DNA of 64,000 nt from Acidobacteriota bacterium (GTDB lineage Bacteria > Acidobacteriota > UBA890 > WLXD01), in contig CBDBHB010000009.1 in NCBI GenBank assembly GCA_965205505.1, forward strand, positions 1,728,001 to 1,792,000. Direction: 5' to 3'. This document shows positions 54,515-57,400 of this stretch, one piece after another. Position numbers and translations under genes: made by a program. A model generated the notes under the pieces. The model ran no database searches, was not told where the DNA came from, and worked only from the letters and a program-made list of their open reading frames with translations. Numbering within the stretch: position 1 is the stretch's first letter; every line of letters starts with the position of its first letter.

Positions 54515-54527
54515 GGAGAATCATGGT

Positions 54528-54562
54528 TCTAAGAAAATTCACATATGCGCATATTACTGCAA
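54528..54562 (-). promoter_or_regulatory. Tandem ARG-box-like operators
   Basis: Minus strand TTGCAGTAATATGCGC and TGTGAATTTTCTTAGA, AT-rich, just upstream of argR. Confidence 0.6.
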
Positions 54563-54875
54563 GATCACGGCAACTGTCTCCGGGAGATCTCGCTCTTGCC
54601 AGTTGAAGTACTTGTGGGCGCCTCTTTATCTGCGGTGTCAGTTTCCGCCGTCCGCATAACGTACCTGCTAACACGGTACTGTCGAGTTAACCGGCAGCGT
54701 AGCAGGGGCGCTCGAGTCAATGCGGCGAGAGCGCTGGTGCATCACACGACCGTGCGAGAGGGGAGAGAGGCCAGTGAGCGAGTGCCCGATCCTGGACGCC
54801 ATCGGACGAGGTGGGTCGTTCGGAGGCTGCGCCGCGGCGGAAAGGCAGCGGAACAGCTTGAACGGCAACGCGATC

Positions 54876-55800
54876 ATGTCACGACCGGCAATGTACGCAT
54901 TGATGGCGCTGACCCTTGTTTGGCCGGGGGAGGCGAGCGCCCAGATCTTCTGGCCTGGGGCGCGAGCGGAGTTCATCTCCGGATTCGGCATCCGCACCGT
55001 GGCGAGCTTCCTGCAGGCCAACGACATGCTGAGCGGCAGGACGCAGGTCCCCGACCCTCTAGGGCGTAGGTTCAAAGCACAGACGGTCTCGATGGCCGTG
55101 GTCTACGGGTTGCACCGAAAGGTCAGCTTGATCGGCGTATTCCCGTTACTCGACTAAGGAGATGCGAATCGACAGCCCGACCGGCGCAGAGCGTCTTGGC
55201 GCCGGCCTGCGCTTCGGCGACGCGACCTTCCTGGTCAAGTGGCGCCTCCTGAAGAGGGATCGCGGCAGAGGAGGAGTCCAGCTGTCGTTTCAGGGTGGTG
55301 TCAAGACTCCGACGGGTCGCGACGACGCACCCGATTCATCGAACGGGCAGTTGTTGTCGCCGCCGCTTCAACGTGGGACTGGATCGTGGGACCCGACCGC
55401 CGATTTCATCACCAGCTACGTGACCCCTTCCGCCCGCTGGTTTTTCACTGCCAGTGTCGGTGCCTCGCTCAGCACGGAGGGCAACGATTTCAAGCCTGGC
55501 GACCGGTTCCGCTACGATGCGATGGTCAAGACACGGATCTCGTCATTGCGCTCCCGCGACCTCTTCTTGCTGCTGGAGCTCAACGGTCGTTGGCAGGGGC
55601 GCTGGCGCGCTGGCGACGAGGAAATCGACAGTTCCGGCGGAACCCTCCTGTACCTTTCCCCTGGAGTCCAGTACCTGCCGCGTCCCAACCTCGTCGTCGA
55701 GGCCGGCGTGCAGCTCCCCGCTGTTCGCTACCTCAACGGCACGCAGTTGGCGCCGAGTATCAACCTGCTATTCGGGCTGCGCTACATCATCCTTCCGTGA
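54876..55800 (+). CDS. Outer-membrane beta-barrel 'transporter' (Phenol_MetA_deg/SphA-like), split by a 1-nt frameshift at ~55155
   Basis: Signal peptide; FGDATFLVKWR, GVKTPTG, LQRGTGSWD, LELNG and SGGTLLYLSPG; removing one base joins ORFs ending 55157 and starting 55162. Confidence 0.75.
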
Positions 55801-55832
55801 AGGACAGACGTCTCGATTCAAGGAGTGTCGAT

Positions 55833-56390
55833 ATGAGCTATCAAACCGAAAGTCGGAGTTTCCTTGCCGTCGGCGTCGTGCTGCTCTGCGCGATGCTCGT
55901 CGCCACGCCTGCCGCCGCCCAGGTCATCAAGGCGGAGGTCGGTGTCGACGGCATGACGTGAGGGCTGTGAGCCTACGGGATCAATCGATCCCTACAACGC
56001 CTGGAAGGCGTTGCCGACACGAAGGAAGACCTGGAGCGAAGGCTGATCACCGTGACCTTCGTGCCCGACGCGAAGTTCGATCCCTCGGAGCTCGAAGCGA
56101 GCGTGACCGCGATCGATTTCACGCCGACTGGCGTGACGGTTTGGCTGCGGGGTACTGCGGACACGAATGATCTGCCGGCGATCGCCACGAACCAGACGGC
56201 AGCGTGGCTAGTGAACGAGAGCAGTGGGCAGCGGTTCTTGCTCGTCGCCGCCGATGAGCCAGGCAGGGAGGCACTTGCAGCGTTCAAGGTCGCACCGCCC
56301 GGGTCGGTGACGCTCTACGGTCGAGCCACCCGAGCCGACGACAAGGCCCCGGTCAGCGTACAGGTAGAAGGGAGCAGCAGCGACGAATGA
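55833..56390 (+). CDS. Secreted heavy-metal-associated (HMA) domain selenoprotein candidate, GMT-U-G-L-U
   Basis: AGGAG RBS; signal peptide ending AAA-Q; VDGMT-TGA-GL-TGA-AYGINRSLQRLEGV; frame continues into ORF 56052-56390. Confidence 0.85.
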
Positions 56391-57400
56391 GGCCTTCGCG
56401 CTCGGCGCGTTTGGTGATTGCTGCCGGGGTCCTGACGGGTTCCGTCGGCACGCTCGGCCAGGCGCTCGTCGGCACGCTCGAGCTCGAGGCCGAGTGGACA
56501 GAAGCCGGCCCCGAGGGTAGCTCCCTCGATCACCCCATGGGCATTGCTGTCGGCGCGTCGGGGCGGGTGATGGTCGCCGACGGTGCCTCGCGGATCGTCG
56601 TTTACGACGCCGACGGCACGCCGATCGACCAATGGCCGTTGCCCGCGGGAACGCGGCCGGTCGGCGTGGCGGAACGTCCCGACGGGACGATCTTGGTGAC
56701 CGACTACACCGGCGATCGCCTGCTACTGCTCGACCGCGACGGCGAGCTGCTCGAGGTATGGGGAGGACGAGGAACCGGTGCCGGTCAGTTCCAGGCTCCC
56801 AGCGGCGTGGCGGTCACGCCGACGGGTAACGTCGTCGTCGTGGAGTTCATGGGCCAGCGCGTCCAGGAGCTCGACGCCAAGGGCAATTTCATCCGCTTCA
56901 TCGACGGCGGCGACTCCGCTCGACTCTACGCTCAGAACCGCCCGTCGGTCCCCGGGATGGAGGAGACGAAGATGTCGATGACAGCCACACTGGGCGATCC
57001 CCACGACCTGTTCGTCTTCCCCAGCGACGCTGCCGTCGGCCCGGACGACACGCTCTATGTCAGCAACACCCACGCCTACGAGATCCTCGTGTTCGAGCCC
57101 GACCGCACCCTTCGCGAGGCCTGGGGACGCAAGGGAGCGGAGGCCGGCGAGTGGGAAGTTCCCGTAGGCCTCGCAACCGACGCGGAGGGCAATCTGTTCG
57201 TCGCCGACAGCGCCAACTTTCGAGTCCAGGGCCTCGACCCGGCCGGCCAAGTCTTTCTCGTGTCCCGGGCCGACGAGCGCTGGTACCGCAGCACGCGGCG
57301 CATCTACTCGCCCGCCGACATCGATGTCGATTCCGAAGGCCGCCTCTACGTCGCCGATTTCGCCGCCTCCCGGGTGCAGCGTTTCGCCAGAGGTTCCTGA
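56387..57400 (+). CDS. NHL-repeat (six-bladed beta-propeller) protein
   Basis: Repeated PxGIAV / GQFQAPSGVAV / LFVADSANFRVQ units; ATGA overlap with the HMA gene stop. Confidence 0.9.
   Translation: MRPSRSARLVIAAGVLTGSVGTLGQALVGTLELEAEWTEAGPEGSSLDHPMGIAVGASGRVMVADGASRIVVYDADGTPIDQWPLPAGTRPVGVAERPDGTILVTDYTGDRLLLLDRDGELLEVWGGRGTGAGQFQAPSGVAVTPTGNVVVVEFMGQRVQELDAKGNFIRFIDGGDSARLYAQNRPSVPGMEETKMSMTATLGDPHDLFVFPSDAAVGPDDTLYVSNTHAYEILVFEPDRTLREAWGRKGAEAGEWEVPVGLATDAEGNLFVADSANFRVQGLDPAGQVFLVSRADERWYRSTRRIYSPADIDVDSEGRLYVADFAASRVQRFARGS

Follow-up and report, generated by a model that had tools for sequence, protein, structure and literature searches.

The 64,000-nucleotide stretch of Acidobacteriota DNA analyzed here (the window; contig CBDBHB010000009.1 of assembly GCA_965205505.1) carries at positions 55833-56390 of its forward strand an open reading frame (ORF) for an exported HMA-domain protein, in which two TGA codons stand where the metal-binding motif CxxC has its cysteines. 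An earlier reading made from the letters of the window alone (the sequence-only reading) had proposed that both TGAs encode selenocysteine (U), giving a UxxU protein. Its observation is confirmed and its interpretation supported: the comparative data indicate that the ORF is a real, conserved gene for a double-selenocysteine HMA protein. The main point of interest is the putative two-hairpin recoding signal behind the second TGA.

A gene with two in-frame TGA codons

The gene and its principal features are as follows.

55833..56390, + strand: gene for the UxxU HMA selenoprotein precursor, 185 residues, stop codon included (Pfam, six-frame and motif searches)
55820..55825, + strand: Shine-Dalgarno-like AAGGAG, 7 nt upstream of the ATG (read from the sequence)
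55833..55919, + strand: probable Sec-type signal peptide (MSYQTESRSFLAVGVVLLCAMLVATPAAA / QV), with a charged n-region, hydrophobic core and A-x-A, recognized by eye
55923..56120, + strand: HMA domain (Pfam PF00403), ferredoxin-like beta-alpha-beta-beta-alpha-beta, loop G-M-T-U-G-L-U
55959..55961, + strand: first in-frame TGA, residue 43, which pairs with the first Cys of the CxxC homologues
55968..55970, + strand: second in-frame TGA, residue 46, which pairs with the second Cys of the CxxC homologues

Everything that the sequence-only reading described in this gene is present, namely the signal peptide, the string GMT-TGA-GGG-CTG-TGA, the in-frame continuation of the HMA domain and the overlap of its stop with the next ATG. 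Positions 55950-55970 read GGC ATG ACG TGA GGG CTG TGA, encoding G-M-T-U-G-L-U. With the TGAs read through, the frame is open for 185 codons up to a terminator TGA at 56388-56390, which shares the tetranucleotide ATGA with the ATG of the next ORF (56387). The HMA match scores 38.4 bits against a cut-off of 24.8 (E 1.7e-9) and covers residues 38-93, spanning both TGAs. The signal-peptide region has a predicted local distance difference test score (pLDDT) below 50 for residues 1-26 in the AlphaFold model, and the same layout is found across all family members.

Both TGA codons recur in related genomes and in metagenomes

The two TGAs are kept in public sequencing data. Logan contigs from four runs in four studies span 55600-56600 with no change at either codon, and their sole mismatches to the window are at 56040, 56068 and 56126; the window itself may derive from one or two of these runs. 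In the source genome, TGA terminates 1,267 of the 2,436 open frames of at least 400 codons. Given that the neighboring genes and many long frames end in TGA, the codon is not generally a sense codon in this organism.

A stop-tolerant, six-frame search of 61 related genomes recovered two-TGA orthologues in three of them, at 83% (G004), 66% (G008) and 45% (G003) identity, together with remoter homologues without stops. In the four CxxC homologues (G-L-x-C-x-F-C-A-Y-G), cysteine is invariant at both U columns. We also scanned two contig collections, genome_contigs and metagenome_contigs, for the DNA motif of G-M-x-TGA-G-x-TGA-A-Y-G. Family members with both TGAs account for 26 of the 31 loci found, the other five being chance matches without HMA context. 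Four of the six loci in genome_contigs are genuine, three of them in Acidobacteria metagenome-assembled genomes (MAGs), two of which are identical to G004 and G008, and the fourth in a low-GC MAG of a different phylum (Calditrichaceae); in metagenome_contigs, 22 of 25 are genuine. Every genuine locus has a signal peptide and the motif G-M-[TFVY]-U-G-L-U-A-Y-G, and about 140 more in-frame codons follow wherever the contig is long enough, with two metagenome contigs (L055 and L060) as exceptions. Synonymous variation past codon 22 shows protein-level selection downstream of the TGAs.

A wider profile search covered 401 genomes of the phylum and gave matches in 117, with 150 of the 151 matches listed (two genomes, G166 and G071, have matches without TGA and enter the tallies only). 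Among the matches listed, 22 have two TGAs and 24 have one. The sequence-only reading had called UxxU rare; on an HMA domain it is frequent in this phylum, and as a kind it is not new, being catalogued in NCBIfam (NF041115) and in review tables. Sequences were retrieved for all 18 double-TGA places outside the family and for 20 of the 24 places with a single TGA. Of the 18, 16 belong to other subfamilies of UxxU HMA genes, with the motifs G-M-T-U-P-L-U-A-Y-G-A-E-K, G-I-T-U-A-L-U-A-F and G-A-T-U-A-T-U-G-Y-S. The 20 single-TGA places include 12 UxxC genes (G-M-D-U-x-x-C-A-H-A-V) and one CxxU gene. No G-x-x-[U/C]-x-x-[U/C] motif was found under our filter at L098 and L099 (two TGAs listed) or at L100 and L113-L118 (one TGA). 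CxxC, UxxC and UxxU homologues thus all exist, with cysteine at both sites in the CxxC proteins.

These data bear directly on the possibility that the locus is a pseudogene or an artifact, in which translation ends at the first TGA or the TGAs are sequencing errors. Gene callers do cut the gene there, unnamed C-terminal tails of 112 residues are all that represents the family in the public protein collection, and the adjacent outer-membrane barrel gene is frameshifted in the source genome. However, the same two TGAs recur in 26 independent motif-scan contigs and in the four runs of four studies, the downstream frame is open and under protein-level selection, and homologues have Cys at both sites. 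The sequence-only reading held that two chance nonsense changes exactly at these codons were unlikely; with the same double TGA and open frame in 3 of 61 relatives and 26 of 31 motif loci, chance can be excluded. Judged by the comparative sequences, the pseudogene or artifact explanation is already contradicted, and we give it almost no credence.

The source genome encodes a selenocysteine decoding system

The source genome (5.98 Mb, 64% GC, 96% complete) has selA (516.6 bits, two copies), selB (354.6 bits) and selD (322.8 bits), all scoring over their curated cut-offs, as well as one canonical tRNA-Sec(tca) with an 8/5 structure identified by ARAGORN. The decoding system that the proposed selenoprotein needs is therefore present, and none of the three refuting outcomes named by the sequence-only reading (reads with TGC or TGT, no TGA here in any other genome, no Sec or UGA-Cys decoding system) came about. 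Other selenoprotein-type genes are present too. FdhA and a second molybdopterin enzyme have one in-frame TGA each, as do 7 of 15 AhpC/TSA matches (motifs such as W-U-P-x-C), two of these seven being identical and located on contigs C3 and C4. At least eight TGA-containing genes of selenoprotein type thus accompany the HMA gene, and the peroxiredoxin-like selenoproteome of this genome is unusually large. The two selA copies lie inverted on one contig with equal scores (C6:10376-11734, + strand, and C6:191379-192737, - strand), and identical AhpC/TSA matches occur at C9:101706 and C9:284995 as well as between C3 and C4; these duplicates are either large repeats or assembly duplications.

We considered whether one or both UGAs could be read as cysteine by a tRNA of the tRNA-ReC (SelC*) type, which would use SelB and the same downstream hairpins and give a CxxC, UxxC or CxxU product. 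According to PMC13582414, tRNA-ReC reads a UGA as Cys in a manner dependent on a selenocysteine insertion sequence (SECIS), and such tRNAs are enriched in genomes with UXXU hydrogenases, at about 56% versus 2.3%. The source genome has one odd ARAGORN tRNA, whose 8-nt anticodon loop contains AGCA. However, that tRNA is a 7/5 cloverleaf with a short variable region and so is not Sec-like, the 55 tRNAs include a single tca species (the canonical tRNA-Sec) and one ordinary tRNA-Cys(gca), and only one SelB scores over its cut-off. ARAGORN, which may miss unusual tRNAs, found no second Sec-like tRNA among the 55 tRNAs of this 96% complete genome, no dedicated model having been run. Decoding as cysteine is, in our judgment, very unlikely. 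The odd tRNA itself lies at C9:617574-617648, where ARAGORN calls it tRNA-?(Ala|Cys); it is an ordinary cloverleaf with the anticodon loop c-t-AGCA-a-a, and a four-base decoder, a pseudogene and a prediction artifact are all conceivable.

Two conserved hairpins follow the second TGA

Immediately behind the second TGA lie two hairpins, at the places given for them by the sequence-only reading.

55977..55992, + strand: hairpin H1, GGGATC-AATC-GATCCC, 6 bp, loop AAUC; starts 15 nt, with its loop 21 nt, past the first TGA
55995..56013, + strand: hairpin H2, CAACGCCT-GGA-AGGCGTTG, 8 bp, loop GGA; starts 24 nt, with its loop 32 nt, past the second TGA

Both are in the minimum-free-energy fold. The 78-nt segment around them folds at -30.1 kcal/mol, compared to -19.9 +/- 2.9 for 300 dinucleotide shuffles (z = -3.5), and RNAalifold run on the family places H1 at nt 19-34 and H2 at nt 37-55, numbered from the T of the first TGA.

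The same region is constrained at the codon level. We compared 20 distinct family sequences, leaving out three chance matches, L055, L060 and contigs that were too short. Over the 45 nt past the second TGA (codons 7-21 after the G of G-M-x), synonymous sites are nearly frozen, with GCC in 20/20, GGG in 20/20, ATC in 14/14, CGA in 18/18, CTA in 18/20, CTG in 20/20, GGC in 20/20 and GTT in 20/20 sequences; of this stretch, the search pattern itself fixed only TAY of codon 8 and, in codons 7 and 9, two leading bases each. The fixed codons within H1 include CGA and CTA, which are rare at such a GC content. Residues farther downstream that are just as conserved use two to four codons, with entropies of 0.8-1.8 bits. 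L055 and L060 keep both TGAs and both hairpins with the frame broken downstream, and may be decaying copies or assembly errors; in L060, a T to A change disrupts one H2 pair.

Comparison with the other subfamilies extends the pattern beyond the family, the two-hairpin layout being found in 16 of their 16 UxxU genes. Over 36 UxxU genes, the H2 columns pair in 91.7% of cases, versus 32-54% when the partner is slid by one to three columns. Three of the eight H2 pairs are altered on both sides (the closing pair U-A to A-U, A-U to G-C, and C-G to G-C), and the H2 covariation score was reached by none of 500 shuffles. Columns 40-43 and 49-52 of H2 are invariant or nearly so across these 36 genes. 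In the 16 genes from other subfamilies, five of the six H1 pairs are altered in both partners, with pairing in 90.6% of cells, as in GGGGCC/GGCCCU, GGUGUU/AACACC and AGCCUC/GGGGCU; their H1 register is one base longer or shifted relative to this family. Both hairpins therefore covary, H2 over the 36 genes and H1 over the 16, in counts that are supportive and no proof, given that the sequences are mutually related and also served to derive the structure. The sequence-only reading had described an H1 loop without G. This is correct for the present family, but most of the equivalent loops in the other UxxU subfamilies start with G.

H2 also separates the UxxU genes from their relatives. Its columns pair at 7-8 of 8 positions in 35 of the 36 UxxU genes, compared to 0-4 of 8 in the 12 UxxC genes and 2-4 of 8 in the four CxxC genes. 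The 12 UxxC genes have a single conserved hairpin, starting at nt 15-17 past the UGA. Judging from these pairings, H2 is a feature of each of the 36 UxxU HMA genes examined, and the 12 UxxC and 4 CxxC relatives lack it.

Short contigs from other organisms in two metagenome runs pile up on 55968-56020 of the window and then diverge, with a summed depth of up to 125 on this interval versus 4-7 elsewhere. The pile-up shows that the hairpin sequence is widely shared in those communities and gives independent support for an RNA element.

Candidate mechanisms for decoding two UGAs three codons apart

In bacteria, the loop of a SECIS hairpin is expected 16-37 nt from its UGA, the range used by bSECISearch. 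For a reference within the source genome, we read the hairpins of seven other selenoprotein genes from the sequence; the predicted fold agrees for five, Prx1 and Prx6 were assigned by eye, and Prx4 is ambiguous. Their spacers are 10-17 nt after the UGA with the loop starting at 16-23 nt, and a G is always within the first two loop positions (GUC, GGUCU, GGUCG, CGUGC, GGU, AGUUC and CGGGU), which is where PMC13582414 places the G of bacterial SECIS elements. That paper (2026) also states as open how the bacterial ribosome decodes two UGAs three codons apart.

With a spacer of 15 nt and its loop 21 nt from the first UGA, H1 falls within the usual spacing of this genome. H1 also starts only 6 nt past the second TGA and thus must be unwound when that codon is in the ribosomal A site. 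Because H1 fits the spacing of the first UGA, H2 carries the G, and H1 is unwound at the second UGA, we prefer a relay. Both UGAs would be recoded by the ordinary SelA, SelB, SelD and tRNA-Sec of the organism, under a recoding signal consisting of the 45 nt directly past the second UGA with its two adjacent hairpins. H1 would serve the first UGA by delivering Sec-tRNA, the ribosome would then advance three codons and unwind H1, and H2, which is more conserved and has a G in its loop, would serve the second UGA with a SelB complex of its own. One hairpin per UGA is suggested by the UxxC genes with one hairpin and the UxxU genes with two, and in such a relay H2 would be the element that needed to evolve for a change from UxxC to UxxU. 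That two SECIS hairpins within 37 nt of coding sequence read two UGAs nine bases apart in this way is a tentative proposal, to which we give somewhat less than an even chance.

Several observations weigh against the relay. The H1 loops of the family (AAUC, ACCC, ACGC and AACC, with one AGCC) mostly lack the consensus SECIS G. The H2 loop is 32 nt from the second UGA and 41 nt from the first, compared to 16-23 nt in the seven other genes, so that neither hairpin matches spacing and loop together as those seven elements do, although both are conserved and covary. Moreover, the two-sided covariation comes only from other subfamilies; within the family, hairpin changes are wobble-compatible alone.

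The alternative is that H2 is the sole SelB-binding SECIS for both UGAs and that H1 is a spacer or pause element, which would set the distance of H2 while the first UGA is read and melt at the second. Across all UxxU subfamilies, the sequence of H2 is much better conserved than that of H1, and the H2 loop has a G in the first two positions in 36 of 36 genes (best-stem search), a G that the H1 loop of this family mostly lacks. For UXXU hydrogenases, the authors of PMC13582414 suggest that a single SECIS downstream may act on both UGAs. On the other side, the UxxC relatives decode a UGA in the first position by means of a hairpin at the place of H1 and without H2, H1 sits at the usual spacing of this genome while the H2 loop is 41 nt from the first UGA, and most H1 loops of the other subfamilies do begin with G. 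We consider a single SECIS a strong rival, with a chance of roughly one in three, and retain the relay as the preferred reading. We found no literature description of two hairpins for a bacterial UxxU protein, subscription journals and supplements being outside the scope of the search; the papers listed for tandem or double SECIS elements were archaeal/eukaryotic or eukaryotic in subject.

Predicted structure of the protein

The AlphaFold model of the whole protein (mean pLDDT 75.6, 15 sequences) consists of a disordered segment (residues 1-26), the HMA domain and a second domain:

56118..56387, + strand: C-terminal domain, about 90 residues, predicted beta1-3/alpha/beta4-5 barrel (model)

The HMA elements in the model are E32-39, H44-55, E60-66, E71-76 and H84-92, with the metal loop before helix 1. 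In Foldseek, this part superposes on MerP (1osd; TMt 0.83, root-mean-square deviation [rmsd] 1.9 A) and CopZ (6ff2; TMt 0.88), and also on Atx1 and the gold-binding GolB; TMt ranges from 0.74 to 0.88 for MerP, CopZ and Atx1. A fold search with the whole protein ranked the copper chaperone for SOD1 on top, at TMq 0.32-0.36 and an rmsd of 7-14 A, and was read as a match of the HMA part only.

Modeled alone, the C-terminal domain reaches a pLDDT of 81.9. It had no Foldseek match at E <= 0.001 and no covering Pfam family, and a protein-atlas search with the C-terminal fragment returned none at 0.9 or above, its DUF4352 rows at 0.77-0.81 being leads only. In VIA-align, nearly all of the top rows are OB folds, with a best Z of 7.7 in a range that the tool calls common. 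The modeled topology, a five-stranded barrel whose helix lies between strands 3 and 4, agrees with an OB fold, and we tentatively describe the domain as OB-fold-like. Because it contains no Cys, Met or His, we infer that it may be a docking or scaffold domain and not a second metal site. CusF is a periplasmic Cu(I)/Ag(I) chaperone of an envelope export system, a small beta-barrel that holds metal through Met, His and Trp. The C-terminal domain is reminiscent of this small barrel but has no Met, His or Cys, and CusF, which was not among the matches listed, was rejected as a model for it.

The gene lies in a barrel - HMA - NHL cassette

The HMA gene is the second of three genes, flanked as follows.

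54876..55800, + strand: outer-membrane beta-barrel gene (Phenol_MetA_deg, Pfam PF13557, E 7.2e-10), first of the cassette
56387..57400, + strand: NHL-repeat beta-propeller gene (Pfam NHL, E 1.9e-27), sharing the ATGA overlap with the selenoprotein stop

The barrel start at 54876 was placed by a signal-peptide-like MSRPAMYALMALTLVWPGEASA. In the source genome, the barrel gene is split by a 1-nt frameshift near 55155, where frame 0 ends in TAA (55155-55157); from about 55162 onward, the remainder of the gene is in the +1 frame. An extra T accounts for this (positions 55140-55165; GACTAAGGAG in the window versus GACAAGGAG in G004), and the barrel is a single ORF of about 300 amino acids in 10 related loci. 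Either this strain has a true frameshift here or the assembly is in error.

By tblastn, the barrel gene is directly upstream of the HMA gene in 23 of 27 related loci; the four loci without a barrel match (L040, L045, L055 and L058) include contigs that start just 5' of the HMA gene. The NHL gene is directly downstream in 11 of the 27, Calditrichaceae loci included, and in the G-M-V subgroup another gene follows. The order barrel - HMA - NHL is conserved, also in the Calditrichaceae locus. The CxxC homologues adjoin barrel and NHL genes as well, in other orders, and adjoin a MerR-type gene and, at L021, a P-type-ATPase-like fragment (both read from ORF translations). Other loci of relatives have a MerR-family regulator directly upstream of the cassette (L059) or a CopZ-N-terminal-type protein nearby (L056 and L057; NF047645, 120 bits). 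In the source genome, argR and argG lie upstream of the cassette and an ABC transporter lies downstream. Inspection by eye of the region 5' of the barrel gene (54515-54875) gave nothing convincing as a MerR-type operator or long-spacer promoter. A Pfam scan of 16 window ORFs (48-64 kb) detected no mer families, no genome search by mer name having been made, and the window contains no Rfam match at gathering thresholds and no tRNA.

L029 (G008:C113) and L019 (near 3290) each have a MerP-like gene in which the motif contains one TGA (G-M-T-U-G-x-C). Downstream of the L029 gene is an ORF with many hydrophobic segments and a CC pair, suggestive of MerT, and the L019 gene shares its locus with a CxxC homologue and a MerR-type gene. 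A public protein of 177 amino acids (P0011) joins a MerR-type helix-turn-helix in its first ~48 residues to the part of a family member past the hairpin region (RLEGVAD...), the product of either a mis-assembly or a deletion by which the selenoprotein gene became fused to a neighboring regulator gene.

Proposed function

Taken with the comparative evidence above, we are confident, short of certainty, that this is a functional gene for an exported protein with an HMA domain (G-M-T-U-G-L-U) and an OB-like domain, which would be made by hairpin-directed selenocysteine decoding and would bind soft metals. The mature protein would reside in the periplasm and be co-expressed with the outer-membrane barrel and the NHL propeller. 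Its diselenolate site would bind a soft, thiophilic metal such as Cu(I), Hg(II), Ag(I) or Au(I), and the protein would be part of an envelope metal-handling module. The periplasmic soft-metal binder suggested by the sequence-only reading fits the HMA fold, the signal-peptide-like N terminus and the MerR, CopZ and P-type ATPase neighbors of relatives.

Some features of the locus and of its relatives speak against this function. The frameshift in the barrel gene means that the module may be impaired in this strain, or that the assembly may be wrong there. The cassette of the source genome has no adjoining metal regulator, ArgR and ArgG being encoded upstream, and the two scores of the L059 regulator, 127 bits for MerR and 124 bits for CueR, are about level and lie under their cut-offs. 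In addition, the UxxU site could form a diselenide in the oxidizing periplasm.

This last point also favors a different role, in which UxxU would be a selenol/diselenide redox center acting on the NHL propeller or on a substrate passing through the barrel, instead of a pair of metal ligands. Diselenides form readily, and the periplasm is an oxidizing compartment. Most known selenoproteins are redox proteins, according to two reviews (PMC9312934 and PMC13188914). However, both fold and motif match HMA domains that bind metal, the neighbors in relatives are metal regulators and metal chaperone-type proteins, and the cassette contains no thioredoxin-fold gene. We regard a redox role as unlikely and soft-metal binding as the preferred function.

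Relation to known systems and significance

UxxU HMA selenoproteins are already known as a kind, and we did not find the barrel - HMA - NHL cassette described. The curated NCBIfam equivalog NF041115 ('UxxU_metal_bind, metal-binding (seleno)protein') is the best NCBIfam match of the protein and shares with it an HMA-type domain in which both metal-ligand cysteines are replaced by selenocysteine. However, the protein scores 33.9 bits against a cut-off of 95 (21.5 bits in the six-frame genome search) and so is no member. The model has 74 positions, whereas the protein has 185 residues with a signal peptide, an OB-like domain and its cassette, and no NCBIfam model covers the family. In tables of the two reviews (PMC9312934 and PMC13188914), UxxU with two selenocysteines is listed as a 'putative mercuric reductase' first seen in an Olavius symbiont study; the term 'mercuric reductase' is absent from the main text of the 2007 Olavius symbiont paper that the reviews cite.

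Among cysteine proteins, MerP (TIGR02052; PDB 1osd and 1afi), the periplasmic Hg(II) binder of mer operons, is likewise exported and consists of a single HMA domain with a GMTCxxC loop, but the protein described here scores 34.0 bits against the cut-off of 92.55, has selenocysteine in place of cysteine and carries an extra C-terminal domain. CopZ, Atx1 and GolB (PDB 6ff2, 1fvq and 4y2i) share the fold and carry the metal loop at the same place; they are cytosolic Cys proteins, whereas this one has an export signal, selenocysteine ligands and a second domain. Single-selenocysteine UxxC HMA proteins, such as the G-M-D-U-x-x-C genes and NF045683 ('MerT/CopZ fusion-like selenoprotein'), share the domain, and the G-M-D-U-x-x-C genes come from the same phylum and have a hairpin at about the H1 spacing from a first-position UGA; they have one UGA and one conserved hairpin instead of two of each. 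The UXXU Group 4 [NiFeSe] hydrogenases, some of them from Acidobacteriota, also have two UGAs three codons apart at a metal-binding CxxC, as described in PMC13582414. They differ in being another protein with another metal site, and there one SECIS-like element was proposed for both UGAs, in contrast to the two conserved hairpins of the HMA gene.

Because gene callers end the gene at the first TGA, databases do not show this widespread, probable envelope selenoprotein of Acidobacteriota. Comparing the UxxU genes, which have two hairpins, to the UxxC genes (one hairpin) and the CxxC genes (none) offers a directly testable model of decoding and a natural set of constructs. Compared to a dithiolate, a diselenolate site in an HMA fold is expected to have a higher affinity for soft metals and to bind them at lower pH, with consequences for protein engineering and for how mercury, copper, silver and gold are handled in soils and sediments.

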